A stretch of 64,000 nt of DNA, from contig CANKAM010000008.1 in assembly GCA_947479755.1 (NCBI GenBank), positions 37,880-101,879 on the forward strand. The letters run 5' to 3'. The stretch's first letter is position 1, and the number at the start of each line of letters is the position of its first letter. The DNA is from Bacteroidota bacterium (GTDB lineage Bacteria; Bacteroidota; Bacteroidia; SXHM01). The notes under the pieces are model-generated. The model was not told where the DNA came from and did no database searches. It saw only the letters and a program-made list of their open reading frames with translations. The position numbers were made by a program, and so were the translations under genes. Shown here in pieces: positions 1 to 54,678 of the stretch.

Positions 1-768
1 CTAATTAACTTTGGGCTTGCCGCACAATCTTTTACGTTTGATTTGAATGGAGAGCGCGGGTCAGGTTTCCGCCTGGCGGCAAGCTTTTCAGACTATTGGG
101 CAGGTTATCCGCATCAGCAGGAAGAGCTGCTGAACTTTATCGCCAGCAATAACATTAAAGATGTAATTTCCATCAGTGGTGACACACACCACAATGTTAT
201 GGATGACGGCACCAACTCAGGACTTCCCGAAATGAATGCAAGCGGACTGAGTGTTACCAATCTTCAATTGGCCTATTGGATTGACTATTATGGTCAGCAA
301 TTAGGACAACCGCACGTGAAGGATTCGCTTTGGAATGGCGGAGGTAACGGAGTGGAAAATATGAATTTTAACAATGCATTCGGAAAGATTGAAATCTTTG
401 AAGACGACTCGGTGCAGTTGTGTATTATTGATTATGAAGGAACCACCATTTCGTGCATGACCATTAAAAATTCTACCATTGCTTCGGTTGATGAAACAGC
501 AGGAGCTGCAAGTAAATTTGATATTCTTGTTTATCCAAATCCATCGGATAATCTTTTTACCATTAAGCTTCCTGAGAACTATTTACTAAGCGGAAAAGAG
601 AAGTGCCGCATTACGGACATCAACGGCAAGTTAGTTTCGGTTATTGATATGGAGAAAGAAAAAGGTGCTAATACCTTTAACATTTCAATGCAGTCATCAC
701 CCGGAATTTATCTCTTGGATTTTAATTCAGGGAAAAAGAAAGTGCAGAAGAAATTAATGGTGAAATAA
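1..768 (+). CDS. PhoD-like metallophosphatase, C-terminal part, with T9SS type-A C-terminal sorting domain (5' end lies outside the window)
   Basis: Frame 1 is open from base 1, so the track start at 43 is only an internal TTG. ISISGDTHHNVMDDG is a metallophosphatase-type motif. The last ~80 aa (VYPNPSDNLFTIKL...GIYLLDF...KKLMVK) fit the Por/T9SS CTD pattern. Confidence 0.6.
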   Translation, partial: LINFGLAAQSFTFDLNGERGSGFRLAASFSDYWAGYPHQQEELLNFIASNNIKDVISISGDTHHNVMDDGTNSGLPEMNASGLSVTNLQLAYWIDYYGQQLGQPHVKDSLWNGGGNGVENMNFNNAFGKIEIFEDDSVQLCIIDYEGTTISCMTIKNSTIASVDETAGAASKFDILVYPNPSDNLFTIKLPENYLLSGKEKCRITDINGKLVSVIDMEKEKGANTFNISMQSSPGIYLLDFNSGKKKVQKKLMVK

Positions 769-2655: not shown

Positions 2656-3231
2656 TTAGCGTGATTTTAGAAACTCCACCAATTTCTCCACCGCCCTTGC
2701 CCGATGCGAAATTCGGTTTTTCTCTTCCAGAGTCATCTCCGCAAAAGTCTTTTCAAAGCCTGAAGGTTTAAAAATGGGGTCGTAACCAAAGCCATCCGTG
2801 CCATGCACTTCGCCTGTTATCTCACCATCCACCACGCCTTCAAAAAAATATTCCTTCTCCTCCAGCATAAGCGATATAACAGTGCGGAACTTTGCTGCGC
2901 GGTTGTCCTTGCCCTGCATTTCGTGCAGGAGCTTATTTACATTGTCAGCAAACGAACATTTTTCACCGGCATAGCGGGCGGAATACACACCGGGAGCGCC
3001 ATTCAGGGCTTCCACTTCTAAGCCTGTATCGTCTGCAAAGCAGTTAAGGTCGGTCAGCTCAAACACAAAGCGCGATTTAATAGACGCATTGCCCTCCAGC
3101 GTATCAGCCGTTTCGGGAATGTCTTCGTTTATGCCTGCATCGGCAAGCGTTACCAGGTTAATGCTGGCGGGAAGCAGCTTCTGCACTTCCTGCAATTTGT
3201 GTTTATTGTTGGTGGCAAAGATGAGTGTCAT
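2656..3231 (-). CDS. rdgB: dITP/XTP pyrophosphatase (RdgB/HAM1 family)
   Basis: [20 protein letters not shown] is a canonical RdgB N-terminus, and GFGYDPIF and SHRA motifs are present. I start at the internal ATG (3231) because the 25-codon extension to 3306 is encoded by an interspersed repeat. Confidence 0.85.
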
Positions 3232-12483: not shown

Positions 12484-12492
12484 TTCAGCTGG

Positions 12493-13863
12493 CTATGAAA
12501 ATAATTCGGCTAATTTAGCATAATCGGGTTTGCCGTTTGCTGTAAGCGGTAATTCGCTGATGAATGCCATTTTTATTACGGTTGGATGAATTTTAAAAGT
12601 GTCGGAGATAAACTGCCTGATTTCATTTTCGGTTTCACCACTTCCTGTTATGCCAATTAACAGAAACTGGTCATTTAAACCGGCACATGCGAACTGATTT
12701 TTTTGAAAATTATTTTTCATTAATTGTTCTATTTCGTCAAGGTTTAAGCGGTTCCCGAAAATCTTAGCAATCCGTTTCAGTCGCCCTTTTATGTAGTAAA
12801 ATCCATCAGAATCCATTTCTGCAATATCACCAGTATGCAGTTTTTTATTTGTTTCAAATGTGGCAAGGTCTTCGGGCTTTTCGGCATAGCCACCAAATAC
12901 ATTGGGTCCTTCATATACCAACTCTCCTGTTTCTGAAATTACGTTAAACTGTCCATTTTTAATGGGCTTTCCTATTGAACCTTTCTTAGAATTAAGCAGA
13001 GTAGGGGCGAGGTATGACATCCGCGCAGTAGCTTCTGTTTGTCCGTACATGACATATAAGTCAATGGCATTTTGTGTACTGTATTCGTTGAAAATGTCAA
13101 GCATTTTTTCATTCATTTTTCCGCCAGCTTGTGTTAAATATTTCAGAGTTGGATATTGTTTTTTAGTAAACCCCAGACGGTTCAGCATCTCATAAAAATA
13201 AGGAACACCTGATAAGGATGTGTAGCCGAATTTTTCCATTTCCTGCCAGAATTCTTTTTGTAAAATATCTTTGTTGCTGCAAATGATTTTTCCTCCTGCA
13301 AATGAGTTGGATGTAAGCACAGATAGCCCGTATGAATAATAAACGGGGAGGTTTAAGGGCGTAGAATCAGTTGTCTTAATTGGCAGATAATCAATAATAG
13401 AAAGAGCATTCTCAATCAAGTTGTTTTCTGAAAGCTTTACAAATTTTGGTGAACCGGTTGTTCCTGATGTACTCAACATCAATTTTAATTCAGGATGAAA
13501 CTGTGGAGTTGGAGTTGACTTGTAAAATAGATTAGTGTCGTACTTTGAATAGCCTTCGATTGCGCTACTTTCCGGATCATAAATAAATGAGGGTGAGTAA
13601 ATCTGTTCAAGATTACTTTTCAGCTTCTCATTAAGTTTAGTATTCAGCAGAACGGCAACATGTGATGAATTTAAGAAATTCAGCAGCGTTGAAACAGCGT
13701 TAAAACTATTGTCTAGGTATAGAAAAGCAAGTGTGCGAGGAACCTGAAGTTTTTCTGAAATCTTGCTGTTAAGTATTTCAGAAAGTGTGAATGCATTATC
13801 TGTTTCTGCATCAATGAATTTAAGTGCAGTGTTTTTTGAAATTAGATCAATGAGCCTTCCCAT
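12493..13863 (-). CDS. AMP-dependent synthetase/ligase (adenylate-forming, acyl or aminoacyl-carrier loading)
   Basis: Adenylation core motifs are present: LSTSGTTGSPKFV, YGQTEAT, TGDIAEMDSDGFYYIKGRLKR. Confidence 0.85.
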   Translation of the reverse strand: MGRLIDLISKNTALKFIDAETDNAFTLSEILNSKISEKLQVPRTLAFLYLDNSFNAVSTLLNFLNSSHVAVLLNTKLNEKLKSNLEQIYSPSFIYDPESSAIEGYSKYDTNLFYKSTPTPQFHPELKLMLSTSGTTGSPKFVKLSENNLIENALSIIDYLPIKTTDSTPLNLPVYYSYGLSVLTSNSFAGGKIICSNKDILQKEFWQEMEKFGYTSLSGVPYFYEMLNRLGFTKKQYPTLKYLTQAGGKMNEKMLDIFNEYSTQNAIDLYVMYGQTEATARMSYLAPTLLNSKKGSIGKPIKNGQFNVISETGELVYEGPNVFGGYAEKPEDLATFETNKKLHTGDIAEMDSDGFYYIKGRLKRIAKIFGNRLNLDEIEQLMKNNFQKNQFACAGLNDQFLLIGITGSGETENEIRQFISDTFKIHPTVIKMAFISELPLTANGKPDYAKLAELFS

Positions 13864-13869
13864 TAAAAA

Positions 13870-14607
13870 TCAGATTACCATGCTCCCGTCAACACCAATT
13901 ACCTGCCCGGTAACATATTCCGATAAATCTGATGCGAGAAATAAAATAACCTTAGCTACATCTTCGGGTTTGCCGAAACGCTTCATGCCTATGGAGTTCA
14001 GATTTTTTTCGCGAAATTTTTCATCTATTCCGGCTGTTAGTTCTGTTTCAATAAAACCGGGGGCCACTGCATTTACCCGGATATTAAGTGGTGCCAGTTC
14101 TTTAGCCAGTGATTTAGTAATTCCTACCACTGCCGCTTTGCTTGAACCGTAAACTGTATTACCCGGATGCCCGTTAATTCCAATAATTGAAGTGATATTA
14201 ATGATGGAACCTTTTCTTTTTCTCAGCATGTTCTTCACTGCAAGCCTGCTTGCGTGAATTACCGGAAAAACATTGGTTTCGTAAGTGTTTTTAATGAGTT
14301 CATCTGATATGGTAAGTAGGGTTGCATCCTGCATAATACCTGCATTGTTTACCAGGCAATCAATTGTAATTTTTTCAGCATTCAGTTGCTTGAAAACGTT
14401 TTCTATTTGTTCCGGCTTAGTTATGTCGCATGGAAATACAAGAACTTTAGCAGGGTATTTAGAAATTATTTCCTGCTTTAAGTCATTCAATAAATCACTG
14501 TTTCTTGAAAGTAATACTAAACTGGCACCCTGCTCAGCGCATAGCAGGGCTGTGGCTTTTCCTATGCCTTTGGAGGCTCCGGTGATAAGCATGGTTTTTC
14601 CCTTCAT
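13870..14607 (-). CDS. Short-chain dehydrogenase/reductase, FabG-like (3-oxoacyl-carrier reductase type)
   Basis: It has the TGASKGIG cofactor motif, NNAG, the YGSSKAAV catalytic motif, and a length of 245 aa. Confidence 0.85.
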   Translation of the reverse strand: MKGKTMLITGASKGIGKATALLCAEQGASLVLLSRNSDLLNDLKQEIISKYPAKVLVFPCDITKPEQIENVFKQLNAEKITIDCLVNNAGIMQDATLLTISDELIKNTYETNVFPVIHASRLAVKNMLRKRKGSIINITSIIGINGHPGNTVYGSSKAAVVGITKSLAKELAPLNIRVNAVAPGFIETELTAGIDEKFREKNLNSIGMKRFGKPEDVAKVILFLASDLSEYVTGQVIGVDGSMVI

Positions 14608-14609
14608 TT

Positions 14610-15488
14610 TTATTGTTCTTGATTTTTATACCCAAATATATTTAACTGCAAGTCCATTCCTTCTTGCAATTTTTTTTCTATAAAGGGTCTCCTTGAACCA
14701 AATTGTGTTTGAATTTGGTACCTGAAATGGTTGTCTTTTAATATTGATAGTATTAAGTCGAGATCTTGTTCTTTATCAGAAAATGAATGGTATTCAATAA
14801 AGATATTGTTTACATTTTTCAGATAATCTTTGCACTCTATTAATACTTTTGTTTCTGCGCCTTCTATATCAAGTTTAAGAAAATCGACATGCTTATCTTT
14901 GATAAACTCACTAAGCAGGCGTGTATCTATTTTTACCAGCTTATCAGTTTTATCTTCTTTTTTATAAGCAATTCTTCCGGCATCGGCTTTTTCCGAATAA
15001 AAATCCAGTTTAGTGACTTTATCCCACAAGGCACAATTATATAGTTCTACCGAACTTAATTCATAATTATTAATATTGGTTTTTAGAATCTCAAAAATAT
15101 ATGGATCTGCTTCAATGCCTATTATCTTTGATTTTGGAAATAATGTTCTAAAATAAAGTATGCTAAGGCCGCAATTTGAACCACAATCAATTATAAGCGG
15201 TGAGTGATTTGTTGAATTAAATTTGTAAATCTCACCGACAAAAATCTCTTGGTAACTATAATAAAACGATAGCGAATCTGCTATTTTAAATTCTTTGCCG
15301 GAAAGGTTTATGTTAAGTGGTTTATACCTTTCCGTATTTATTAGTTCATAATATGGAGATTGCTCAACAGGTATAAGGTTATAGCCAAAATTATTAATGA
15401 ATTTTTTTATTGTATTTTTCACCTGTATATTAATCCAGTAATTGTTTATATAGTTTAGAATAGGAGAGAGCTTGTTTTTTTTGATCAA
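14610..15488 (-). CDS. FkbM-family methyltransferase
   Basis: IIDCGSNCGLSILYF, IGIEADP and FLKLDIEGAE are FkbM hallmarks. The ATG at 15488 overlaps the upstream gene by 59 nt, while a GTG at 15422 would give no overlap. Confidence 0.75.
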   Translation of the reverse strand: MIKKNKLSPILNYINNYWINIQVKNTIKKFINNFGYNLIPVEQSPYYELINTERYKPLNINLSGKEFKIADSLSFYYSYQEIFVGEIYKFNSTNHSPLIIDCGSNCGLSILYFRTLFPKSKIIGIEADPYIFEILKTNINNYELSSVELYNCALWDKVTKLDFYSEKADAGRIAYKKEDKTDKLVKIDTRLLSEFIKDKHVDFLKLDIEGAETKVLIECKDYLKNVNNIFIEYHSFSDKEQDLDLILSILKDNHFRYQIQTQFGSRRPFIEKKLQEGMDLQLNIFGYKNQEQ

Positions 15489-16668
15489 ATTCTTTAGCTG
15501 CGAATTCTCTTATTAAGTCACGCGAAAAATTAAATCCCCCGTTCAAAAATTCAGAAATTGCTATTGATAGAGCTTCAACAGAAATTTTATTGGCTAAAAT
15601 ACCATTTTCACCTGTTTTAATGCAATCAATAATTCCTCCAACCGGGAATGCAATTACAGGAGTACCACAGGACAGTGCTTCAAGCATGGTATTGGGTAAG
15701 TTATCCTGAAGCGAAGGCAGGATAAAAGCATCTGCTGCATTATAGGCAAGGTTCATTGTTGTTTCATCGTTGATGTGGCCAGTATATTGAATTTTTAGAT
15801 TTGAATCAGATTCGTTCTCTTTTCCTATCGCTAACAAGTGAACATCATCTCTGTTGATTATAGAAATGGCTTCTTTAAGTATTTTAAAACCCTTACGTTC
15901 TTCAAATAGTTTATCACTGATAAATAAAAGAACTTTTTTATCATCAGAGATGCTAAATGCCTGGCGTGCTTCTGATTTATTTATAGGGAAGTAAACATTT
16001 GTGTCTAATCCATAAGGAATGTGGTAATGCTTTTGCTTTCCGAATAATGTGCTCTGTAATGATAAATTATGCAGCCATTTTGAAGGAGCCACAACAGCTA
16101 TTTTTTTTTGGCTTAATGCTGTTTGTTTTAACAAAAAATTTTTTTCGGTAGCTATGACCAAAGATTCCTTATTTTTCCATAAATAACAATTGTGGCAGTT
16201 ACTTGAGTATTTATCACAGTTTTCGGAGTAGTGACAACCTCCAGTAAATGGGTTTTGGTCATGAAGCGTCCAAACTAAAGGTTTCGTATTGTTTTTGAAA
16301 AAACTTTTGAAGTCAATAAAATCTGAAACCCAATGAAGATTAATTATGTCTGCTTCATGATAAATCTGTGTTTTAGTAATATCATAATCGCTATCCGCAA
16401 AGGAGAACATTGTTTTCTCTTTGGATAAAGTTGAGGTGTTTAGTGTGTTTTTTTCTGATGTTGTCTGGTATAAATTTAATTTTCTTAGAATTTTATAAAC
16501 AAGATTGATGTCCTTTTTTGGGAATTCATAACTCTTATTAATGACTTTATTTTTGTGAAGGTATAAAATAGATGAATCGAACTCCTCATTCAGCAAACCA
16601 ATATGAAGCCTGTTAGCTGCTATTGCTGCTCCACCTGAACTTGATGTTGAGACATGAAGAATTTTCAC
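15430..16668 (-). CDS. Glycosyltransferase family 4 (GT-B fold)
   Basis: It has the MKILHVSTSSSGGAAIAANRLH N-terminus and a C-terminal EX7E-like region (LPNTMLEALSCGTPVIAFPVGG). Confidence 0.8.
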   Translation of the reverse strand: MKILHVSTSSSGGAAIAANRLHIGLLNEEFDSSILYLHKNKVINKSYEFPKKDINLVYKILRKLNLYQTTSEKNTLNTSTLSKEKTMFSFADSDYDITKTQIYHEADIINLHWVSDFIDFKSFFKNNTKPLVWTLHDQNPFTGGCHYSENCDKYSSNCHNCYLWKNKESLVIATEKNFLLKQTALSQKKIAVVAPSKWLHNLSLQSTLFGKQKHYHIPYGLDTNVYFPINKSEARQAFSISDDKKVLLFISDKLFEERKGFKILKEAISIINRDDVHLLAIGKENESDSNLKIQYTGHINDETTMNLAYNAADAFILPSLQDNLPNTMLEALSCGTPVIAFPVGGIIDCIKTGENGILANKISVEALSIAISEFLNGGFNFSRDLIREFAAKEFDQKKQALSYSKLYKQLLD

Positions 16669-16801
16669 TTATTTCATTTTTTTTAGAACCAGTGCAAGGC
16701 GGTAATAATCATAATTCGCATCTTAATCTATTAACAATTTCTTCCAAACAGAAATCTTGTTTTAAATTATTATAAATGAGAGAAGTTGTTTTGAATTTTT
16801 A

Positions 16802-17716
16802 TCACTGTTTTCGGAATAAACATAATAATTTACCTACTAAGGACTTCGTTGCTGTAGGTTTATTTTTTTTTCGTAAGAATCTATTAAAATAATTTTCGTC
16901 AGCTGCTGTGTTTAGATAAATTTCAGTTGGATGAAGTAGTTTACTTCCTATACTCGTAGTTTTTATTTCAGCAAGTGGTGATATTTCCTTAGTGTGGGTT
17001 GCATCTTCGCTAAAGCCAATATTTGTAACAAGATTTTCATTTGGTAGAATTGTTATTCCGTTGTTTTGCCATATTGAATAAAGCCATTGGTAATCCCAGG
17101 TATCTATTTGCTGTTTTTTTACTTTAGTAAAAATATTTACCCAGTAATCATATTCATCATTTGAAAGATAGAAATTAAATTCTTTAGATTTCAAGGAATT
17201 CTCCAAATAATTTAAATCAATGTCATACTTCTTCCAAGCTCTGCCCCAAGTTGCCCAGCCCCAAATATGGGCATGTTTTGAAAAGTAATACGTGTCGGAA
17301 GTTTTATTTTCGCCATTTTGAAAATTATTTCCACTAATGTGCATTATGTTTTCATTACTCCGGTATATATCCAATAATATTTCGCAAAAAGTAAAAAAAC
17401 TCTGATCAGGCAAACAATCATCTTCCAATATTATCCCCTCTTCCACATTATCAAAAAACCAGTTAATTGCTGAGCTAACAGCATCGCGGCAGCCAATATT
17501 TTTATCCCTGAACAGAGTTTTTACTTCGCATTTCCAGTCAATTTTGTTTAAAATGCTACGTACCTCTTCGCATTTTTTTGCTTCTCCTTCTTTATCTGGT
17601 CTTGGGCCGTCTGCTGCAATATATAGTTGATTGGGTTGGGCCTTACGTATTTCTTCAAAAACACGGAAGGTAAGTTCGGGGCGGTTAAAAATGAGGAATA
17701 ATACGGGCGTCTTCAA
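16802..17716 (-). CDS. GT2-like nucleotide-diphospho-sugar transferase (HlpA-like family)
   Basis: VLFLIFNRPELTFRVFEEIRKAQPNQLYIAADGPR ... ILEDDCLP matches this widespread family. It must start at TTG, because a stop lies four codons upstream. Confidence 0.6.
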   Translation of the reverse strand: MKTPVLFLIFNRPELTFRVFEEIRKAQPNQLYIAADGPRPDKEGEAKKCEEVRSILNKIDWKCEVKTLFRDKNIGCRDAVSSAINWFFDNVEEGIILEDDCLPDQSFFTFCEILLDIYRSNENIMHISGNNFQNGENKTSDTYYFSKHAHIWGWATWGRAWKKYDIDLNYLENSLKSKEFNFYLSNDEYDYWVNIFTKVKKQQIDTWDYQWLYSIWQNNGITILPNENLVTNIGFSEDATHTKEISPLAEIKTTSIGSKLLHPTEIYLNTAADENYFNRFLRKKNKPTATKSLVGKLLCLFRKQ

Positions 17717-17773: not shown

Positions 17774-17812
17774 TAAAAAAGCAGTCCCGCAATTCTGCGG
17801 GACTGCTTTTTC
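17774..17812. terminator. Bidirectional intrinsic terminator
   Basis: The stem is GCAGTCCCGC-aattct-GCGGGACTGC, flanked by an A-run on the left and a T-run on the right. It sits 18 nt past the stop of the minus-strand FN3 gene. Confidence 0.8.
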
Positions 17813-17829: not shown

Positions 17830-18507
17830 CTATTTTGCTCTAACCTGAGCTATGTCACTCATAGCTCCGTGTCCGGTGGCGCCAAGCGCCCTTACACGAA
17901 ACTGATAAATGTGACCACTGATGAGGTTTGTAGCCTTGTACCTCGATGCGGTTACGGATTGAAGATGTTTCCATTCTCCGTTTCCCGCACCGGGGGTAGG
18001 TGTGCCGGGCATACCCGGAAGCATGCTCGCATTTCCACCATCACCGGTGAAGCCCAGATCTTTATATTCAAGCTCGAAAGCTTTGGCTGCTGTAACAGGA
18101 TCCCAACTCAAGTCGATTTCGCCTTCGGTAAGCGTACTTTCTGCCACAAGGTTTTGCACCTGTGTCATCTGGACTTTTGGTCCGCGTTGCTTCCTCAGTT
18201 CAAAACCCGAACTGATGATCTTATCAGCATCCCCATTGCTTGCGCTCTGAATATAGGCAGCAAGTTGCTTGATCAGCAATCTCAACTCTTTATCCCTCAG
18301 ATTCCTTGCGATTATCAGATTGCGGTCAAAGGCAGCGGCAGCGGTTATGGCGTTGCTCAGTGCGGTAATGGCCGCAAGAAAGGTCACAAGGTCAGGAATG
18401 GGAGTGAGAAAATTTGCATTTCCGGTCAGTTTACCGTGTAGGAGGGTGGCTTTTGCCGCCAACTGAACAGGATTTAGTCCGGAAGTTCCAACTTTAACAT
18501 TTGCCAT
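17830..18507 (-). CDS. Helical N-domain + fibronectin type III-like C-domain protein, no signal peptide (paralog 1)
   Basis: The C-terminus (IDLSWDPV...YKATNLISGHIYQFRVRALG) is FN3-like. The N-half aligns with the product of 51999-52715 (GNxxF..P.P, LAxYV...A.G....I..SGF). The gene is visibly more GC-rich than its neighbours. Confidence 0.7.
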   Translation of the reverse strand: MANVKVGTSGLNPVQLAAKATLLHGKLTGNANFLTPIPDLVTFLAAITALSNAITAAAAFDRNLIIARNLRDKELRLLIKQLAAYIQSASNGDADKIISSGFELRKQRGPKVQMTQVQNLVAESTLTEGEIDLSWDPVTAAKAFELEYKDLGFTGDGGNASMLPGMPGTPTPGAGNGEWKHLQSVTASRYKATNLISGHIYQFRVRALGATGHGAMSDIAQVRAK

Positions 18508-18600
18508 TTTACTGGATGTTCGTTGCCGGGATGCGCCCGGTGACGCCTTTCCCGCTTTGTGCGGGGTTCACTTGTAAGATGCAGCACCTGGTTAAAAGGA
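18508..18600 (-). promoter_or_regulatory. GC-rich structured 5' leader candidate
   Basis: In minus-strand sense, CCCGC-ACAAA-GCGGG and CCGGG-CGCAU-CCCGG hairpins lie immediately upstream of the ATG, set within an otherwise AT-rich 650-bp spacer. Confidence 0.35.
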
Positions 18601-18710
18601 ACAAAATGAATTGTTAAAATTTGTTAAAAAGTGTTTTCTTTTTCTTTTATACGTTAGCTTAAATCAATGAAAACCCAATGGTGTAAAGGGTTTTGGTTAT
18701 TCCTATTTTT

Positions 18711-18960
18711 ATAATTTAGTTTTGCTTGTATTGATATAAAAAGCAATTCTTCAATTGTGTTTTTGCTTTTGTAAATAAAGAAAAGCCTTGCTTTAATAGT
18801 GAATTTGCTTTTTTTTAATTATAAAAAATGCGTTTACAAGTATGTTTTTGCTTTCTATAATTAACGAAGGTGTTTACTTAATAATGAATTTGCTTTTTAA
18901 AATTAAGAAAAGAGCTTACTTAATTATGTAACTGTTAATTTCTATTTAATAAAGCTGTTC
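18711..18960. repeat. Degenerate tandem array with ~42-bp period (about 6 units)
   Basis: Exact TTTGCTT heptamers start at 18721, 18762, 18804, 18847 and 18889 (spacings 41/42/43/42). A second motif, CTTnAATnnTG, occurs at 18749, 18791, ~18834, 18877 and 18919. Confidence 0.7.
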
Positions 18961-19131
18961 TTAAACAAAATAGTTACTTAGTTTGGTTATTTAAGCAGGT
19001 TAAATTAAAATGATGTGATGCACTCTGATTATATAAGCGTTTTAATCTCGCACTTATTTATTATATTACAAATATAATTTATTTGCAATTTCATAAATTT
19101 TCTACATTAACAATGGATTGTAATATTCTTA

Positions 19132-19159: not shown

Positions 19160-19906
19160 ATGATACTGAATAAAAAACTGATAGTAGTTTTGCCTGCCTA
19201 TAACGCTGCACTAACTCTGGAAAAAACATACAGCGAAATTCCTTTTGAAGTTGTAGATGATGTGGTATTGGTTGATGATGCCAGCAGTGATAACACCTCT
19301 GAAATTGGCAGCAAATTAGGAATTAAACACATTATCAGACACGAAAAAAATAAAGGCTATGGTGGCAACCAGAAAAGCTGCTACGATAAAGCGCTTGAAC
19401 TGGGTGCCGATATAGTTATCATGCTTCATCCTGATTATCAGTATACGCCTATGCTTATACAACCCATGGCTCATATTATTGCGAGTAATCTCTACCCGGT
19501 TGTATTGGGTTCGCGAATTCTTGGTAAGGGCGCTTTAAAGGGCGGTATGCCACTTTATAAATACATTTTTAACAGGTGTCTTACCCTTACTCAAAATATT
19601 CTGATGGGACAGAAACTTAGTGAGTACCATACCGGATATCGTGCATTTTCAAAAGAAGTACTTACTGCAATTGACTATCATGCAAACAGTGATGATTTTG
19701 TTTTTGATAATCAGATGCTTGCCCAGATATTTTATGCAGATTTTGAGATAGCCGAAGTAACCTGCCCTACCAAGTATTTTGACGAAGCATCATCCATTAA
19801 TTTTAAACGCAGTTCAATCTATGGATTAGGTGTATTGGCAACATCCCTTCAGTATTTTTTGGCAAAAGCAGGCATTATTAAACCGGCCATCTTCAAGAAA
19901 AAATGA
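19160..19906 (+). CDS. GT2 polyprenyl-phosphate glycosyltransferase (GtrB/ArnC/DPM1-like)
   Basis: VVLPAYNAALTLEKT ... VLVDDASSDNT ... MLHPDYQY is the short (248 aa) soluble GT2 form. GT-C-type membrane proteins follow directly. Confidence 0.75.
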   Translation: MILNKKLIVVLPAYNAALTLEKTYSEIPFEVVDDVVLVDDASSDNTSEIGSKLGIKHIIRHEKNKGYGGNQKSCYDKALELGADIVIMLHPDYQYTPMLIQPMAHIIASNLYPVVLGSRILGKGALKGGMPLYKYIFNRCLTLTQNILMGQKLSEYHTGYRAFSKEVLTAIDYHANSDDFVFDNQMLAQIFYADFEIAEVTCPTKYFDEASSINFKRSSIYGLGVLATSLQYFLAKAGIIKPAIFKKK

Positions 19907-21555
19907 TAAGTAAACAACGGGTTGATTATTATTTAATAGCACTGGTTGGTCTATTTCTCACAGTTATTGCATTCAAATGGAACCATCTTAATACTCCCTA
20001 TTTTTGGGATGAAGCATGGGTATATGCTCCCGCAGTTCAAACTATGGATAAAACAGGGCTTAGCCTATTGCCTTCAGGTTTGCCTACTGATCTTTCTAGA
20101 GGGCATCCTCTGTTATTTCATTTTCTGGCAACATTATGGGTTAAAATTTTTGGTACAGACTTTATTTCCGTTCACAGTTTTGCGCTTTTTATTTCTTTAG
20201 TGTTATTGTTGGCAGTCTATAGTTTTGCAAGTTATTTTTTTAGTCCGATTGTAGGTTTTGCATCCGCTTTGCTTCTTGCTGTTCAACCGGTATTTCTTGC
20301 ACAATCATCCTTGCTGTTGCCGGAGATAATGTTAGCGCTATGGACCATTCTCGCTTTCTATGCGTACTTAAGAAATAAAAAAATTGCTTTTGTAGTGCTT
20401 TCGGTATTAATGCTTATGACTAAAGAAAGCGGCCTTGTGTTTCTTGTAGCTTTACTATGTTGGGAGTTGGTTGATTTGATATTGCAATATATCAAGTCGG
20501 GTTCAACTAAAGTTAGTTACATGAAATTTTTATTGCCTGTTATTCCAATAGCTATTGCGTCACTTTTTTTTATAATACAAAAAGTTCAATTCGGATGGTT
20601 CTTCTACCCTACGCATATCAATGAAATTAAATTTTCATTTACGGAAATTTTTGATAAAATCATGTCCTTTTCTTATTTTGTTTTTGAAAGACAAGGTAGG
20701 TATTTATTGATTTTTATGGTTTTAGTTTGTCATTTATTCTATTTTAAATTAATGACATTTTTTGAGAAAATTATTCTGTTTTCAGGGTATGCTTTTTTAT
20801 CAATATCTTTTATTACGGGTAATTTTTTTGCTAATAGTATAGCGTTGGCAGTCATATTTACACTGTTGATTATAATCGTTTTTCGTAAAAATTATTTGGA
20901 TTTTGACAGAAACTACCAATCCTTAAAAATTATAAGCATAATAATAATTTTTGTTAGTGGTTATTTTCTTTTTTCAGCATTGAATGTCTTTTTTATGAGG
21001 TATTTATTTATTGTGTTCCCTTTTGTAATTATTGCTTGTGTTTACTTATTGTACTCATCACTCGAAAATATAAAGTGGATTTTTCTTTTAGTTATTGTTA
21101 TATCATCAATATTTTGCATCAGAGCTGTTAATTATGATGAAGTGGCTCGTGATTACAGTCTCAGTTATCTAAATTCAGTTCATGTTCAGAAAAAAATGAT
21201 AGATTATCTTGTAGAAAATAAATTTCAACACAGTAATATATTTGCAAACTGGCTAACAGTGCAATATCTGATAATACCTTATTCAGGATATATTGATGAT
21301 GATGAGATTTTTCCTCATGCAGATTTTACAGTTACCAATGACATGGAGTATTGTATTTTTACAAATGTTGAAATGAATGTAAATTATGATTCCCTTATTA
21401 TGTATATGAGATTGGAGCCCATAATCACTTTTCAGGAAAACTCAACGTGGATAGATTTATATAAATTTAATGGATTCGATAAAGACACAACAGCACTTGG
21501 ACCGGAAGAACTATCTGTCAGAAATGCCAGAAGATTAAAATACAGAGAACTATGA
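19903..21555 (+). CDS. GT-C fold membrane glycosyltransferase (ArnT/PMT, GT39/GT83-like)
   Basis: The PYFWDEAWVYAP loop follows the first helix. There are about 12 helices plus a soluble C-terminal domain. It is translationally coupled to the upstream GT2 by a 4-nt overlap. Confidence 0.65.
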   Translation: MISKQRVDYYLIALVGLFLTVIAFKWNHLNTPYFWDEAWVYAPAVQTMDKTGLSLLPSGLPTDLSRGHPLLFHFLATLWVKIFGTDFISVHSFALFISLVLLLAVYSFASYFFSPIVGFASALLLAVQPVFLAQSSLLLPEIMLALWTILAFYAYLRNKKIAFVVLSVLMLMTKESGLVFLVALLCWELVDLILQYIKSGSTKVSYMKFLLPVIPIAIASLFFIIQKVQFGWFFYPTHINEIKFSFTEIFDKIMSFSYFVFERQGRYLLIFMVLVCHLFYFKLMTFFEKIILFSGYAFLSISFITGNFFANSIALAVIFTLLIIIVFRKNYLDFDRNYQSLKIISIIIIFVSGYFLFSALNVFFMRYLFIVFPFVIIACVYLLYSSLENIKWIFLLVIVISSIFCIRAVNYDEVARDYSLSYLNSVHVQKKMIDYLVENKFQHSNIFANWLTVQYLIIPYSGYIDDDEIFPHADFTVTNDMEYCIFTNVEMNVNYDSLIMYMRLEPIITFQENSTWIDLYKFNGFDKDTTALGPEELSVRNARRLKYREL

Positions 21556-22991
21556 TGATTGATTGGTTAAGTCGATGCTTATCAGCCATAAAATGGCAGA
21601 TATTTTTCGGGGCTGTCGTTTTTTCTTACCTGTTGTTTCAGTTAATCCTTGCATTCTACAATAACCTTACCGTTGATGATTATGATTTTTTGTCCAAGTT
21701 GCAGGATTATGGTTTCTGGGGATCAATTAAATTGTGGTATTATAGCTGGCAGGGCAGGGTTGGAGCCTATTTTTTTATCAATGTTTTTATTTTATTGAAT
21801 ACTTACCTGAATGCACTGGTAGTATATCATCTATTTTTTCTTATTGTATTTAACGGTAGTCTTTTTTTATTGCTGAAGCAACTGGTTAGAAGGTCGGGAG
21901 CAATTGTAAGTAATATGGAACTCCTTACAGGAGTGTTATTCTTTTATGTGCTTTTTCAGTCATTCACCTTCGATAAAACCTTAGTATTCTGGCTTGATGC
22001 GTCCATCATATATTACCTGAGTATAGCTATTGCACTGTTTGTAAACAGCATTATTTTTTCTGAAAAAAACAATGCTGTTTATTTTGTCTTAGTTGCGTTA
22101 TTAAGCATGCTTGCGTCAACATTTTTAGAAAATTTTTCGCTTTTATTTTTTGCTTTACTTGTTCTAGGATTGACCATTTCAGTTTGTTTTCCATCAACTC
22201 TTTTTTTTCAGGGGACAAAAGCAAAATTCGCTTTCGCAATAATGGGCTGCGTGTTGGGTATTGCTGTGTTGGTTTTGTGTCCGGGACTTGAATTCAGGCA
22301 GGCTTCTTTTGTTCGTCCGGGTATTTTTGGTATTATTAAAATATCGTTGAATTCAAGTTATCATTTTTATAAAATTCTGTTATTACCCGAATTGGGTAAA
22401 ATTATTTTTATGGCTGCACCTTTCATCTATTGGGGAGCAAAACTGAGAGAGCGAAATTTTAAGGATACGGCAAATAATCCTTTGCTAATCTGCGCTGCAT
22501 TATTGTCAATTCTGTTTACACTTATTTACTTCTCGTTTTTAGTAATGGCTTACGGAACGGGTGGTATTGGTCAGCCAAGAACCCTTACACCTGTTGTTTT
22601 TTTGCTTACAGCAACTCTGGGTATTGTTTATTTTATCGTAGGCTATTATGGAAAAATAAGCAAAGGTATTGCAACCATGATGACAGTGGCCGGGTTAAGT
22701 ATTTATTTTATAAATGCTGCTACTGATTATCTTAAAGTGCTACCCGAAAGTATAAAATACTCACAAAGTGAGCGGCAAAGAATGGGGTTGATAGACCGGT
22801 TTGCACTTGAAAACAGAACCGATACTTTGGTGTTGGATACATTATATTATAATAAGCATGTTATTTATCGTTCAAATGAACTGGCTGTTAGCCCAGACCA
22901 AGGTTGGAACAAAACAGTTAAGGAAGCGAAAAAAATAGAATTTGAATTAAGGACAAAATATACTGTCAGTTATACAAATGATGTTGAATAA
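21552..22991 (+). CDS. Polytopic membrane protein, GtrII/DUF6056-like candidate glycan-modifying enzyme
   Basis: It has multiple helices and a YYSWQGRVGAYFF motif reminiscent of GtrII-type proteins. A 4-nt overlap links it to the upstream GT-C gene. Confidence 0.45.
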   Translation: MMIDWLSRCLSAIKWQIFFGAVVFSYLLFQLILAFYNNLTVDDYDFLSKLQDYGFWGSIKLWYYSWQGRVGAYFFINVFILLNTYLNALVVYHLFFLIVFNGSLFLLLKQLVRRSGAIVSNMELLTGVLFFYVLFQSFTFDKTLVFWLDASIIYYLSIAIALFVNSIIFSEKNNAVYFVLVALLSMLASTFLENFSLLFFALLVLGLTISVCFPSTLFFQGTKAKFAFAIMGCVLGIAVLVLCPGLEFRQASFVRPGIFGIIKISLNSSYHFYKILLLPELGKIIFMAAPFIYWGAKLRERNFKDTANNPLLICAALLSILFTLIYFSFLVMAYGTGGIGQPRTLTPVVFLLTATLGIVYFIVGYYGKISKGIATMMTVAGLSIYFINAATDYLKVLPESIKYSQSERQRMGLIDRFALENRTDTLVLDTLYYNKHVIYRSNELAVSPDQGWNKTVKEAKKIEFELRTKYTVSYTNDVE

Positions 22992-23013
22992 CCATGTGAG
23001 ACAGATATAATTC

Positions 23014-24153
23014 ATGAATTTCATTCCGTTCAATAAAGTATATCTTACAGGCAAGGATGTTGAATATGTTCAGGCTGTTTTCAATTCAGGAAAGTTTTCC
23101 GGTGGTGCAGATTTTACTCAAAGGTGTAATGCTTATTTTTTAGCAAAATATTCTTTTAACGAAACACTGTTAACTACCTCCTGTACCGCAGCGCTGGAGA
23201 TGGCAGCCATGCTGATTAATATAAGGCCCGGTGACGAGGTTATTATTCCATCTTACACCTTTGTTTCAACCGCAAATGCTTTTGCTGTGCGCGGAGCCAA
23301 AATTGTATTTATTGATTCCTGTATCGATAATCCAAATATGGATGTCAGTAAACTGGAAGAACTAATAACTGCTAAAACGCGTGCAATCGTTTCGGTGCAT
23401 TATGCAGGTATAGCCTGTGATATGAATAATATTCTGGCAATAGCAAAGAAATACAACTTATTTGTTATTGAAGATGCCGCTCATGCTATTAATGCTTTTT
23501 ATAAGGGTAGGGCTTTAGGCTCTTTAGGACATTTAGGAACTTTTTCGTTTCACGAAACAAAAAACATCACCTCCGGTGAAGGTGGAATGTTAATTGTAAA
23601 CGATCAGGTCTTTTCTGACAGGGCTTCCATACTTATAGATAAAGGAACAAACCGTAGATCATTTTTTGAAGGCAGGACTGATAAATATGAGTGGGTAGAT
23701 ATGGGTTCATCTTATCGTTTGCCTGAGTTATCGGCAGCATTTCTGTTTGCCCAACTTGAGGAGTTGAAGCTTATTCAGAACAAGAGAAATACGATATGGC
23801 AGAAGTATTACGCAGGTTTGAAGGAATTGGAAGATAATGGTCTTATTAATCTGCCCCTTATACCTGAATATGCAAAGCATAATTCCAGCATTTTTTATAT
23901 TGTATGTAAAAATAAACAACAGCGAAATGCTTTAATCCATCAACTTAATCAAAAAGGTATCAGTTCGGCATTTCATTACCAGCCCTTGCATTTAAGTCCG
24001 TATTATACTTCGGTGTCTAGTGACAAAATAAATCTTCCTAATGCTGAAAGATATGGTGAGTGTCTGCTTCGTTTACCTCTTTACCCTGAATTGTTAAATC
24101 AGGATTTGGAGTTTATCATTAAAGAGGTAAACGCAGCTCTTACAGAACTATAG
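23014..24153 (+). CDS. wecE: dTDP-4-amino-4,6-dideoxygalactose transaminase (WecE/RffA type)
   Basis: It matches E. coli WecE over long stretches as I recall it: IPFN..., PGDEVIIPSYTFVSTANAF, RGAKIVF, HYAGIACDM, FSFHETKN, DKGTNR, DKYEWVDMGSSY. Confidence 0.85.
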   Translation: MNFIPFNKVYLTGKDVEYVQAVFNSGKFSGGADFTQRCNAYFLAKYSFNETLLTTSCTAALEMAAMLINIRPGDEVIIPSYTFVSTANAFAVRGAKIVFIDSCIDNPNMDVSKLEELITAKTRAIVSVHYAGIACDMNNILAIAKKYNLFVIEDAAHAINAFYKGRALGSLGHLGTFSFHETKNITSGEGGMLIVNDQVFSDRASILIDKGTNRRSFFEGRTDKYEWVDMGSSYRLPELSAAFLFAQLEELKLIQNKRNTIWQKYYAGLKELEDNGLINLPLIPEYAKHNSSIFYIVCKNKQQRNALIHQLNQKGISSAFHYQPLHLSPYYTSVSSDKINLPNAERYGECLLRLPLYPELLNQDLEFIIKEVNAALTEL

Positions 24154-51900: not shown

Positions 51901-51906
51901 TCTATT

Positions 51907-51981
51907 GAACAAGGAACACCGATTAACGATTTTCAGATTTAAGATTGGGCTGCTTACTTCAAAAATCGGTGTTCCTTGTTC
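51907..51981. repeat. Long perfect inverted repeat (18-bp arms, 39-nt loop)
   Basis: GAACAAGGAACACCGATT (51907-51924) pairs with AATCGGTGTTCCTTGTTC (51964-51981). It sits 18 nt past the stop of the minus-strand FN3 paralog. Confidence 0.8.
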
Positions 51982-51998
51982 GATATTCAGTGTTCGAT

Positions 51999-52715
51999 TT
52001 ACCCTTCCACCACTTTTTTGCTTACCACCACGCTTAGCGGGCTTACACCGCCTGCATTAGTAGCCCAGTAATACAAATAGTAGGTAGTGCCTACCGTCAG
52101 GTTGATGAATGTTTTTTTACGGTTCTTATTTAAATCAATGATGCCGCGCAGGGCTGCCTGAGCTATAGCAGCACCCGCTGCTGCCTCATTATCATTAATA
52201 ATAAGCTGTCCCAGTCCATTCATGGTTACCCATGCAGGTAGTTCCTCATCTGCCGTTAGTATAGTACTGTAGCTGTCGGCACCCGAAACCACTGCACAAT
52301 CGGCCAGCAGCTCACCTGCTCCACCTCGGGTAAGTGTTGCCCCTGTGGGTTGAAGCGGTGCACTAATTGGAGTAAGGTTGCTTTTAGTAGGCGTAAAACC
52401 TGCCAGAATAATGGTGTTTGGATTACCCAATGCCACCGTGTTTACATACACTGCCAGTGTATCCAAAGCAGCCATCAGGGCTTTCTTAGCTTCTTTATAC
52501 GGGCCAAGCTGTGCGGTGCCGCCTGCCTTATGAGCGGAAAGTTTGTTAATAAAATCGGTTAGCAATGCCTGAAATAGTGCTTCGGTCATTGGCGGCATTA
52601 CAAAAATCAAAGGATTTCCGAATATGCCGTTTTTTACGATGTTGGCAAATGTTTCTATCAGGTCTCTTTTTAAAGTATGATAGACAAGTTTGCATCTGAT
52701 TAATAGTTGTGCCAT
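51999..52715 (-). CDS. Helical N-domain + FN3-like C-domain protein, no signal peptide (paralog 2)
   Basis: The N-half aligns with 17830-18507 (GIFGNPLIFVMPPM..., LAVYVNTVALGNPNTIILAGFTPTK). The C-terminus is a beta-rich FN3-like region (TTYYLYYWATNAGGVSP). Confidence 0.65.
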   Translation of the reverse strand: MAQLLIRCKLVYHTLKRDLIETFANIVKNGIFGNPLIFVMPPMTEALFQALLTDFINKLSAHKAGGTAQLGPYKEAKKALMAALDTLAVYVNTVALGNPNTIILAGFTPTKSNLTPISAPLQPTGATLTRGGAGELLADCAVVSGADSYSTILTADEELPAWVTMNGLGQLIINDNEAAAGAAIAQAALRGIIDLNKNRKKTFINLTVGTTYYLYYWATNAGGVSPLSVVVSKKVVEG

Positions 52716-52812
52716 GATTAGTATATTTATTAGTTAATGATTTTTATTGTTTTTAAATTGTATCAAAAAACACGCTTCGTTTAGTTGAGTTTTAGTGCAA
52801 AGTGTCTTTCAG

Positions 52813-53064
52813 GTAAGAGCAACTGTCTTTGGAGTTACTCTACAGGTCTTTGAAGTAAGACCAACTATCTTTGGAGTTACTCAACAGGTCTTTGAAGTAA
52901 GACCAACTGTCTTTTGAGTTACTCAACAAGCCTTTAAAGTAAGAGCAACTGTCTTTTGAGTTACTCAACAAGCCTTTGAAGTAAGAGCAACTGTCTTTTG
53001 AGTTACTCAACAAGCCTTTGAAGTAAGAGTAACTGTCTTTCGGGTTACTCAACAAGCCTTTGAA
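52813..53064. repeat. Tandem array of six exact-length 42-bp units (plus decayed partial units on both sides, ~52790-53100)
   Basis: The units start at 52813, 52855, 52897, 52939, 52981 and 53023. Units 4 and 5 are identical and the others differ from them at 2-5 positions. Each unit contains the palindrome GAGT-T-ACTC. Confidence 0.95.
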
Positions 53065-53257
53065 GTAAGTTCAACTGTGCTTTGCGTAAGTTTAAAGGTA
53101 ATATGCGCCTTAGAAAAGGCAAATGTTAGTATTCCAGTATGTCAAAGAGCGCTGTCAACAAACCGTGTTTGTAATTGACGGCACAAAAATGCCCCATAGT
53201 GCCAACACTACCTTAGACCTTTACAATAAATTTAAAGAAGAGAATTAGACAAAAAGG

Positions 53258-53998
53258 CTAATTCAATACCAGCACCCTTTCGGGATACAGATGGCTGAAC
53301 TGCCCGTAGAGCAAGATTAGTTGGCGCAGTTTTTCTACATTAAAGGCATCTTTTATTTCGCGGATGTAGAGGTTGACCGAAGCACGTGATTTATCTATTT
53401 TTTCCTCTACCTCCTGCTTGGTGGTGCATACGGTAAGGTAATACATGGTAAGCTGCGCATATTCAGACATGCCCAGGTAGGTGGCATACAATTTTTTGGC
53501 CTCGGCAGCACTGCAGGGCTGCACCGGGGGATGCTCCATAACATCGCCCGACAGAGCGGTTACCAGTGTAACTATGCACGTAGGACTTTGACGAAAACCC
53601 TGCATAGCATGCGATTGAAAAGCAAGCAGCTTGTGTGTGCCATCGGCACATTCCAGCCGCATCAGGGTATCCAGGTCGTAGGGGCTGCGGGTATTAAAAT
53701 GGCTAGTGTAGCGGTCAATAGTGCTCATGCAGCAGGCCTTTCGCATCAGTGCTGCCAGCAGCATAGGGTCTTTGCTGGGCCCCTGTCCTTCGGCATAGCC
53801 CAGTAATTTATCCAGTGCAGGGTTTATATAAACGGGCTGATTATCATCCAGCGGGTGTATAATAAGACCGTAAGGAACCAGCTGCCCAATGGTATCCATC
53901 AGTTTATAGCTGCGCACAATTAAAAGCTCGGCAGGTCCCAGCTTTTTCTGAAACGCTTTCTCAATCTTATCATGTTCTGCTCTAAGGAAGTCTAGCAT
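53258..53998 (-). CDS. Transcription regulator candidate: PAS-like N-domain + LuxR/FixJ-type C-terminal HTH
   Basis: The C-terminus ...TTKQEVEEKIDKSRASVNLYIREIKDAFNVEKLRQLILL fits the LuxR-type HTH spacing. The N-half (GLIIHPLDDNQPVYINPALDKLLGY) is PAS-like. This call rests on pattern recognition only. Confidence 0.5.
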   Translation of the reverse strand: MLDFLRAEHDKIEKAFQKKLGPAELLIVRSYKLMDTIGQLVPYGLIIHPLDDNQPVYINPALDKLLGYAEGQGPSKDPMLLAALMRKACCMSTIDRYTSHFNTRSPYDLDTLMRLECADGTHKLLAFQSHAMQGFRQSPTCIVTLVTALSGDVMEHPPVQPCSAAEAKKLYATYLGMSEYAQLTMYYLTVCTTKQEVEEKIDKSRASVNLYIREIKDAFNVEKLRQLILLYGQFSHLYPERVLVLN

Positions 53999-54260: not shown

Positions 54261-54414
54261 TAGGCAAGTTTACCAGACGACACCATCAACGGTTAATCAA
54301 CGGGCTGACCACCCAACAGTGACAGACAAAAAATAAAAGTGGAGACCAGCAACCACTATAAAAACGGGGCGACACCGAAAAGCCTAATGTGTAGAAGAAG
54401 GAAATAAGGAATTA

Positions 54415-54678
54415 ATGAAAAGATATTCTATCTCTAATGCTTATCCCAACCCTGCAAAAAATACAACCCGCATTGATTATACCTTGCCTGATGGAGTTAA
54501 TAATGGCGTAATTGTTTTTTATGACCTGCAAGGCAACGAAATAAAACGTTTTAAAGTTGATAAAACATTCGACCATCTTTTGGTTTCTACTGCCGATCTT
54601 TCTTCCGGAACCTATTATTTCCAGCTTCAAACCGCTTTACAAAATAGCGAAGGCAAAAAAATTGTAGTGATAAAATAA
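54415..54678 (+). pseudogene. Orphan T9SS type-A C-terminal sorting domain (gene remnant lacking any passenger domain or signal peptide)
   Basis: The 87-aa ORF is essentially only the CTD (YPNPAKNTTRIDYTLP...LSSGTYYFQLQT...KKIVVIK). The upstream 340 bp is non-coding. Confidence 0.5.

Follow-up and report, generated by a model that had tools for sequence, protein, structure and literature searches.

Helically phased tandem arrays upstream of a family of helical-hairpin and FN3 protein genes in Bacteroidota: a candidate lattice of protein-binding sites

In a 64,000-nucleotide stretch of DNA from a Bacteroidota bacterium (GenBank assembly GCA_947479755.1, contig CANKAM010000008.1, positions 37,880 to 101,879 of the forward strand; the whole stretch is called the window below), the gene for a 238-aa protein with a helical N-domain and an FN3-like C-domain is preceded by a non-coding tandem array of 21-bp half-units, and a non-coding tandem array also lies upstream of the homologous gene in every related locus with usable upstream sequence (about 35 of about 35). 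The association between gene and array is specific and universal in this sample, and the repeat periods keep to multiples of 21 bp with a single exception. We tentatively read the array as a helically phased lattice of putative protein-binding sites that would control a dedicated, non-canonical promoter or transcription unit of the FN3-family gene, a reading that we place close to, and somewhat below, an even chance. A first-pass annotation, made from the letters and a list of open reading frames (ORFs), had described a three-part module on the minus strand, and the ORF list together with Tandem Repeats Finder (TRF) confirmed all three parts, i.e., the regulator-like ORF, the array and the FN3 gene, which are arranged as follows:

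53998-53258, minus strand: regulator-like ORF of 246 aa (ORF list), with a probable C-terminal helix-turn-helix (HTH) and an N-terminal domain without assignment
53178..53187, minus strand: Box1, TTTGTGCCGT, from the aligned flanks of the window locus (WIN), L009, L010, L018, L037 and L039; modest conservation
53134..53149, minus strand: Box2, cTCTTTGACATACTGG, a strand-specific 16-nt box 5′ of the array; candidate dedicated promoter or factor site
52804..53084, minus strand: tandem array of 13 alternating 21-bp half-units (6.6 units of 42 bp), non-coding
52716..52803, minus strand: A-rich, G-poor leader from the array to the start codon, with a family-conserved ATTAAC...AAAAC-type motif near the ATG
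52715-51999, minus strand: gene of the 238-aa helical and FN3 protein (ORF list; AlphaFold2 model)

TRF placed the window array at 52806-53084 with a period of 42, 6.6 copies, 91% matches and 0% indels, and a pattern search with the two half-units returned 13 sites of alternating A and B types at an exact 21-bp spacing between 52804 and 53076, when 0 matches were expected by chance in shuffled sequence and none was found elsewhere in the window. The fundamental period is 21 bp and not the 42 bp of the earlier description. The array begins 174 bp past the stop codon of the regulator-like ORF and stops about 90 bp short of the ATG of the FN3 gene, and stop codons occur in all six of its frames. 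Together with the array of a remote paralog described below, it is one of the only two arrays of period ≥15 detected by TRF in the window, both of which belong to FN3 genes. The GC enrichment remarked on in the first-pass annotation was borne out as well: when the 54 ORFs of the window were ranked, the paralog came first (49.7%), the regulator-like ORF second (48.9%) and the FN3 gene fifth (45.9%), against 38.6% for the window overall.

The survey covered about 35 independent homologous loci (numbered with an L) in Bacteroidota metagenome-assembled genomes and metagenomes, 335 kb of sequence in all, with 24 loci from species-representative genomes and 19 from Joint Genome Institute (JGI) metagenomes, plus assemblies indexed by exact protein. 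TRF detected the array in all homologous loci but L015 and L020, where it was visible by autocorrelation (L015, z=11.1 at lag 84 and 9.7 at lag 42; L020, z=8.0 at lag 21), controls giving z no higher than about 5.7 unless the interval held coding repeats. The period was 42 bp in most loci, 21 bp in some and 63 bp in some, the single exception being 41 bp, and mostly there were 0% indels. The 3′ end of the array fell 31-220 nt before the start codon, mostly 40-110 nt. The only other arrays of period ≥15 in the 335 kb were collagen-like coding repeats.

The unit sequences are unrelated between most loci. In the comparison of L009 with L010, the flanks matched on either side at 75-80% identity and the similarity broke off precisely where the array begins and ends, and between the arrays themselves blastn found no match, one half-unit being about 66% alike by eye; in L008 and L031 the arrays are about 75% alike and the genes 79%. 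The units of an array are homogenised, and their sequence changes at roughly the neutral rate or above it. Strains more than 99% identical differed in copy number (4.7 vs 5.7 units in L034/L036 and 4.3 vs 5.3 in L022/L023), although copy numbers taken from short-read assemblies of repeats may be distorted. No short motif was universal among the units, the best 4-mers occurring in only about half of the arrays, and this lack of a common k-mer disfavours a single global sequence-specific binder; nor was a conserved structure shared across loci found. Under neutral evolution, units that have become unrelated would be expected to have picked up indels too, with their periods spread out. Since the units are unrelated while the periods stay at multiples of 21 bp, and since this is kept even in profile-level paralogs, comparison of the sequences argues that selection acts on helical phase, through something that would read double-stranded DNA from one face.

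Two properties of the arrays affect how they appear in public data. Assemblies break in or at the array (the contigs of L053, L054 and L055 start 144-219 nt upstream of the gene, and that of L061 ends 196 nt upstream), and because of these short-read breaks many family members lack their upstream region in public data and copy numbers need caution. Gene callers turn arrays into spurious ORFs, such as a 115-aa ‘gene’ in L001 (5638-5985), and arrays were called as ORFs or as N-terminal extensions of the FN3 protein in L001, L011 (-375..701 relative to the gene) and L016; the proteins touched by such miscalling are P0055, P0066, P0096, P0119, P0131 and P0148. As gene callers read them as ORFs, arrays lie hidden as hypothetical proteins in public annotation.

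The protein that follows the array was modelled with AlphaFold2 on 32 homologs at a predicted local distance difference test score (pLDDT) of 81. The model has a short N-terminal strand, a helical hairpin (helices 17-32 and 45-95) and a C-terminal beta-sandwich, and Foldseek searches of PDB and BFVD returned FN3 domains only, with probability 1.0 and template modelling (TM) scores of 0.72-0.78 on the target, so that the C-terminal half is an FN3 domain by its predicted fold. The conserved N-terminal strand and Cys8/Cys140 are candidate contacts for oligomerisation. The N-domain matched nothing in PDB, BFVD, Pfam or PDB sequence profiles; the whole protein had no match in Pfam (E≤1), NCBIfam or PADLOC, and none of the 32 homologs had a credible Pfam match. 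PHROGs gave marginal matches only, to FN3-type tail proteins (E=0.066 and 5.8e-4). An identity in anti-phage defence or as a phage structural protein was rejected, there being no PADLOC match, only these marginal PHROGs matches and no family member on viral contigs. No signal peptide is visible in the sequence, the N-terminus MAQLLIRCKLVYHTLKRDLIETF having no hydrophobic core, and neither a lipobox nor a Pfam Por_Secre_tail match, the mark of a C-terminal domain (CTD) of the type IX secretion system (T9SS), was present, as the first-pass annotation had stated. As there is no hydrophobic N-terminus and no Por_Secre_tail, the protein was rejected as a T9SS cargo; Por_Secre_tail is present on neighbouring genes, in the window and in related loci. 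A family profile searched against 1.84 billion cluster representatives matched 1,646 at E≤1e-3 (some of which are FN3-only), 353 at E≤1e-10 and 132 at E≤1e-30. Members are almost always 215-245 aa long and come from Bacteroidota of freshwater and soil; there are also weaker relatives, at about 30% identity, whose annotation places them in Acidobacteriota. A genome can hold several loci (at least 4 in CANJWH01, 6 in JBFWYU01 and 2 in JAJVIC01).

The first-pass annotation had also pointed to a paralog of the same two-domain layout with its own array of about 42-bp period elsewhere in the window, and a hidden Markov model (HMM), hhalign and autocorrelation at lag 42 all support it. The features concerned are:

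18507-17830, minus strand: remote paralog of 225 aa, helical N-domain plus FN3 domain (Pfam fn3, hhalign)
18700..18930, minus strand: degenerate array of about 42-bp period, about 5 units (TRF, autocorrelation)
17775-17806: strong intrinsic terminator 3′ of the paralog, read from the sequence

The paralog matched Pfam fn3 (PF00041) at E=5.2e-6, with 27 bits against a cut-off of 25. Against the 238-aa protein it gave a BLASTP E of 0.004 and a colinear family-HMM match at E=5.8e-9, and hhalign of family A1 against A2 reached a probability of 98.3% (E=1.3e-14) over 174 columns covering both domains. Upstream of it TRF found 2.0 copies of period 42 at 18847-18928, autocorrelation gave z=7.3 at lag 42, and AAAGCAAA recurs every 41-43 bp, at 18896, 18854, 18811, 18769 and 18728. 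Other loci of the paralog family are periodic too (L056, lag 42 with z=6.8; L058, TRF periods 21/42; L060, TRF period 42 with a GC-rich array). The 5′ leader of this subfamily, GC-rich and strongly conserved, contains two small hairpins (CCCCGC..GCGGG and CCGGG..CCCGG) and is located at 18508-18640 on the minus strand of the window and at 2870-3000 in both L056 and L058; a direct repeat, TTTTAACAA, is conserved as well and present twice about 115-135 nt 5′ of the ATG. This leader had no Rfam match, and the three sequences available are too few for covariation. The paralog heads a large cluster of glycosyltransferase and polysaccharide-biosynthesis genes (window 10155-17716, minus strand, and 19160-24153, plus strand), and this synteny is kept in the orthologous loci L056/L057, a hint of some link between the paralog subfamily and a surface polysaccharide. 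A giant multi-FN3 protein of 3455 aa, P0182, matches the 225-aa paralog (local phmmer, E=5.5e-94, 307 bits), and this similarity in sequence suggests that paralog-like modules are embedded in it.

A DNA-binding gene lay upstream in roughly 22 of the 26 loci with enough upstream sequence, far above the background of regulator genes, and the neighbours come from at least four unrelated DNA-binding families (XRE, LuxR/GerE, LytTR and AraC). Pfam supports the assignment in 11 loci, and about 10 further loci were assigned by homology:

L001, L004, L013, L017: HTH_3 / HTH_26 (XRE), by Pfam
L014, L015: XRE, by homology to L017
L033: XRE-like, by eye
L007, L011, L025: GerE, by Pfam
L037, L039: GerE class, by homology
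L008, L016, L027: LytTR, by Pfam
L031: LytTR, by homology
L044: probably LytTR
L018: AraC HTH_18, by Pfam
L038, L010: AraC, by homology

The first-pass idea of a recurring module withstood the refuting condition named with it, that upstream arrays and regulator linkage would be missing from homologs elsewhere: arrays of a 21-bp multiple (41 bp in one) stand in all of the about 35 loci, and most have a DNA-binding neighbour. The conserved partner is not a PAS/LuxR gene. The ‘PAS/LuxR-type’ label given to the window regulator itself was not confirmed. Pfam returned HTH_3 alone (E=0.16, residues 193-232), and no PAS domain was matched in Pfam or NCBIfam at E≤1, leaving the ‘PAS’ half of the label unsupported. 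The other half, ‘LuxR-type’, is plausible by sequence resemblance to the class of L007, L037 and L039, which consists of an uncharacterised N-terminal domain followed by a LuxR/GerE HTH: the N-terminus is weakly colinear with the 243-aa GerE protein of L007 (BLASTP E=0.02), which itself matches GerE (PF00196) at E=2.6e-12, and residues 168-228 align to the GerE region of the class at low probability (hhalign E=0.0064). A search of 5.8 billion proteins found no homolog of the window regulator but the protein itself, and its single-sequence AlphaFold2 model (pLDDT 37) is not interpretable. In two loci with no adjacent regulator, an upstream ORF of 235-250 aa (L020, -2155..-1403; L022, -1451..-744, relative to the FN3 gene) looks by eye like an IS200/REP-associated tyrosine transposase (Y1) and is a candidate only.

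Upstream of the array, a second conserved element came to light. Box2, gTTCTTTGACATACTGg (window 53149-53134), stands 5′ of the array by 7-113 bp in 13 distinct loci with at most 1 mismatch, always on the strand of the gene, and was found nowhere else on either strand in the 335 kb of loci. It is usually preceded by a hairpin and followed by A/C-rich, G-poor sequence, and no common fold was found upstream of it; in some loci Box1 lies 16 or about 37 nt further upstream. The XRE-type loci have no Box2; instead they carry AAACAGGTTTTCAACAnnTGCTnTTAAAAAT upstream of the XRE gene and ATGATTACGTCTGCACCAAAC right after its stop codon, at the array start. These two boxes flank an otherwise exchangeable XRE gene (L001 5178-5377, L014, L015, L017), and the recombination breakpoint between L001 and L014 coincides with the ATGATTACGTCTGCACCAAAC box. 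In these loci nothing that looks like a terminator separates the XRE stop codon from the array, which follows it directly.

The promoter of the FN3 gene appears to be non-canonical. The Bacteroidota -7 box TAnnTTTG ends 18-29 nt before about 10 other start codons in the window, and none was found within 150 nt of the regulator-like ORF, the FN3 gene or the paralog, which upholds the earlier remark that the box is missing from the two paralogs. The leaders from array to ATG (47% A and 7% G in the window, with means of 47% A and 7.8% G over 30 loci) contain almost no TTTG, so that a sigma-A -7 box cannot sit between array and ATG in most loci; the exception is L020, where the array is degenerate and TAAATTTG occurs 81 nt before the ATG. 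No sigma-70 or sigma-A promoter was found between array and ATG. Because the leaders are almost free of TTTG, the TTTG of Box2, the only such element that is conserved, is the best promoter candidate, and on sequence grounds Box2 would be a better one than anything adjoining the gene. No -10 element was seen by eye after the TTGACA inside it. With Box2 as promoter, the array would be inside the transcription unit, as in the XRE-type operons.

On the reading we favour, there would be one site per 21 bp (two helical turns) and all sites would lie on the same face of the DNA, making the lattice a cis-control element of the transcription unit for the small helical-hairpin and FN3 protein. Its likeliest occupant would be a locus-specific transcription factor encoded next door, i.e., the product of the 246-aa ORF in the window and XRE, LuxR/GerE, LytTR or AraC proteins elsewhere. 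Six to twenty copies could bind cooperatively over 130-450 bp, polymerising on one DNA face, and yield an all-or-none switch private to each paralog. Transcription would start at Box2, or in XRE-type loci at the XRE gene, and run through the array, and the bound lattice would be a roadblock or silencer relieved by a signal; less likely, a weak promoter at the 3′ edge of the lattice would be activated by it. The units would be homogenised and turned over by unequal recombination, whole-unit changes in copy number keeping the phase and tuning the switch. A spacing of 21 bp is the standard head-to-tail arrangement on one helix face for LytTR (9 bp plus a 12-bp spacer), AraC I1-I2 (17+4) and XylS (15+6) sites, and this canonical spacing may explain how unrelated factors share one architecture. 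The LytTR spacing is matched at all loci, the 41-bp array aside, including the window locus, which is without a LytTR gene.

Several observations count against this reading. L001 and L014 are 96% identical from the first base past the regulator stop, array included, and their XRE genes are unrelated; L008 and L031 have similar arrays, and their LytTR proteins are only 29% identical; L033, whose neighbour is XRE-like, has units of the TGAAAC(A/G)G type in common with L008. The arrays of L022/L023 and of the paralog subfamily, the window copy included, have no adjacent regulator. Upstream of the cognate regulator genes, array motifs showed no significant enrichment (mean rank 7.5 of 17, p=0.10), and matches to the LytTR consensus in the arrays of LytTR loci are partial by eye. 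Dimers of XRE or LuxR proteins would call for dyad symmetry, which is weak here (Fisher p=0.017), with L025 accounting for the signal. In addition, Box2 is read as a promoter from its sequence, and we know of no well-studied chromosomal precedent for arrays of 13-20 operators in these regulator families. Judged from these sequence comparisons, regulator and array are only loosely coupled in evolution.

Two other explanations are both unlikely. The one to which we give more weight is that the array acts as RNA, in which case 6-20 tandem modules of 21/42 nt in a 390-575-nt leader, transcribed from Box2 or the XRE gene, would bind a protein (possibly the helical domain of the FN3 protein itself) or form attenuator hairpins and so control translation, stability or termination in cis. 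This would suit the placement of Box2, which is strand-specific, 5′ of the array, after terminator-like hairpins and before leader-like A/C-rich sequence, as well as the arrays that directly follow an XRE stop codon and the fact that the array tracks the FN3 gene and not the regulator in L001/L014. The sense strand also carries an excess of A over T in 22 of 30 arrays (p=3e-4) and is favoured by purine runs, a modest skew, and each unit in the window could form an 8-bp hairpin, GAGUAACU/AGUUGCUC. However, a role as RNA does not explain why the period should be fixed at 21 nt; the loci have no structure or motif in common, the fold z-score of the window array is just -2.3, and Rfam 15 returned no match at E≤1 on 52600-53400 and 18450-19000, while the G content of the arrays (19%, vs about 8% in the leaders) suggests two distinct compartments. 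It is also improbable, if worth keeping in mind, that the lattice is read by some other binder, such as a nucleoid or architectural protein for periodic DNA or the FN3-family protein, with the regulators acting elsewhere (Box1/Box2, or the box upstream of XRE). Regulators exchanged while arrays persist, and arrays without adjacent regulators (L022/L023 and the paralog family), are what it would predict, and AAACAGGTTTTCAACAnnTGCTnTTAAAAAT and ATGATTACGTCTGCACCAAAC could then be the regulators’ true targets and the cassette exchange points; but a single conserved binder should leave a motif common to all units, which was not found, predicted curvature is not raised, some arrays even coming out straight, and the helical and FN3 fold has no recognisable DNA-binding module.

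Decidedly less probable still is a neutral or near-neutral minisatellite that hitch-hikes with the gene family, its period going back to an ancestral duplication of 21 bp and being maintained by unequal crossing-over. Sequence turnover at about the neutral rate or faster, copy numbers that vary between near-identical strains and the lack of a detectable shared motif would all be expected of it. What it does not account for is that arrays are kept in every locus examined, hhalign-level paralogs included, that the 21-multiple period with mostly 0% indels survives complete sequence turnover, that the position before the ATG is fixed, that the arrays are linked to DNA-binding genes, and that non-coding arrays occur nowhere else in the 335 kb of loci and the window. 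We regard it as very improbable indeed that the array encodes a heptad-repeat peptide (21 nt being 7 codons) or acts by intrinsic curvature from in-phase repetition. The periods are multiples of both 3 and 21, an array-spanning ORF exists in some loci, those of the L001, L014 and L019 clade starting at a conserved ATGATTA(C/A)GTCTGCACC, and a wedge model makes any 21n-periodic DNA more curved than a random sequence (end-to-end over contour length of about 0.65 vs 0.91). The coding version was rejected, since over 30 arrays an open sense frame was no commoner than an antisense one (17/30 vs 14/30), the window array has stops in six frames, and a 41-bp period would break any reading frame. Curvature was likewise rejected as the basis: in a Bolshoy-Trifonov-type wedge model, 27 real units were no more curved than shuffled units (Kolmogorov-Smirnov p=0.79), and several arrays were predicted to be straight.

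Other known kinds of repeat were considered for the array and rejected. It is not a CRISPR array, the A and B half-units being near-identical with no unique spacers and the ORF map of the window having no cas genes. A plasmid iteron origin does not fit, as there is no Rep-like gene, the neighbours are chromosomal housekeeping or T9SS-cargo genes and there are up to 6 loci per metagenome-assembled genome. Nor does a partition centromere of the parC/parS/sopC type, as no ParA, ParM or TubZ NTPase adjoins any locus.

Some further sequence features surround the window locus. Just 3′ of the FN3 gene lies an inverted repeat that may be a terminator or insulator hairpin:

51903-51924 / 51964-51985, no strand assigned: 22-nt inverted repeat, 95% complementary, with a 39-nt spacer

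Short repeated elements also occur 3′ of the gene in the related loci L004/L012. On the other side, the only Rfam match at gathering level in the window, unrelated to the array, is a full-length DUF805 RNA motif at 54334-54401 on the plus strand (75.8 bits, E=3.4e-12). It stands directly 5′ of an 87-aa ORF (54415-54678, plus strand), with no DUF805 gene there, and this ORF is barely more than a T9SS C-terminal domain (Por_Secre_tail).

The arrays would amount to a conserved non-coding element defined by helical geometry and not by sequence, a kind of element that homology searches miss, and they mark a large, unannotated, GC-enriched, multi-copy and apparently specially regulated protein family, whose members may be a major structural or surface component. 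With these loci one can ask about the role of long phased arrays of sites (cooperativity, thresholding, roadblocking or tuning by copy number), and one architecture with XRE, LuxR, LytTR and AraC neighbours is a natural experiment in regulator exchange; as the same architecture serves four regulator families, it is also a source of orthogonal regulator-operator pairs for synthetic biology. A bolder proposal, which we consider possible but doubtful, is that the loci represent a bacterial cis-element of a class not recognised before, ‘satellite operators’, in which selection fixes only the 21-bp period and the position, the sequence follows concerted evolution, and the partner factor is swapped among at least four families. 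If so, each paralog would have a switch to itself, orthogonal to the others and probably ultrasensitive, with up to six such switches in a genome; a filament of 6-20 factor subunits would form on one DNA face, possibly as a roadblock downstream of a Box2 promoter; and the loci would provide a ready-made library of orthogonal factor-operator pairs and be the bacterial equivalent of enhancers and silencers built from repeats.

Among known systems, the closest likeness is to the direct-repeat operators of LytTR (AgrA, AlgR, PlnC) and AraC/XylS regulators, which share with the arrays head-to-tail sites at 21 bp centre-to-centre on one helix face, and genes of these families adjoin arrays in L008, L016, L027 and L031 (LytTR) and in L018 and L038 (AraC). 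Known operators of this type have 2-3 sites directly upstream of the -35 region, whereas the arrays here have 6-20 sites over 130-450 bp and occur also with XRE, LuxR or no neighbour, the window regulator being neither LytTR nor AraC. Phased tandem binding repeats are familiar too from the R6K/RK2 iterons (about 22 bp), F sopC (12 x 43 bp), R1 parC, pSK41 parC and the inc18 omega heptads; such plasmid iterons and centromeres adjoin the gene of a small DNA-binding protein and nucleate a higher-order nucleoprotein complex that also regulates transcription. The arrays resemble them as tandem phased repeats beside a DNA-binding gene, with a unit length comparable to that of F sopC, but they have no Rep, ParA, ParM or TubZ gene, are chromosomal with many copies per genome, and are tied to a helical and FN3 gene while their DNA-binding neighbours come from unrelated families. 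The encoded protein has the canonical sandwich of FN3 proteins and differs from them in having no signal peptide, lipobox or T9SS CTD and in its fused N-terminal strand and helical hairpin, which match nothing in PDB, BFVD or Pfam.

Full-text literature searches turned up no account of the layout of array and FN3 gene, and the first-pass annotation likewise knew of no described system of this architecture; the nearest topic was that of the TAACTGA heptamer arrays (PMC4679880). These are oriented intergenic repeats in Beggiatoaceae, Cyanobacteria and some Bacteroidetes whose binding factor is unidentified (PMC4679880). They share with the present arrays the form of oriented intergenic tandem repeats upstream of start codons, Bacteroidetes included; but they consist of one fixed heptamer genome-wide, within a few nt of the start codon of many unrelated genes (PMC4679880), whereas the sequence here is locus-specific, with a 21n period, 31-220 nt before the ATG of one gene family. 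The promoter-proximal variable-number tandem repeats (VNTRs) and contingency loci of pathogens (e.g., Moraxella uspA, cited in PMC4679880) have units of 1-9 bp that change spacing or frame. Like them, the arrays lie between upstream signals and the start codon and vary in copy number (L034 vs L036, L022 vs L023), but their units of 21/42/63 bp keep the helical phase when copy number changes and are conserved across a whole gene family. Overall the element resembles phased operator arrays most, and there is a substantial chance that it forms a category of its own.

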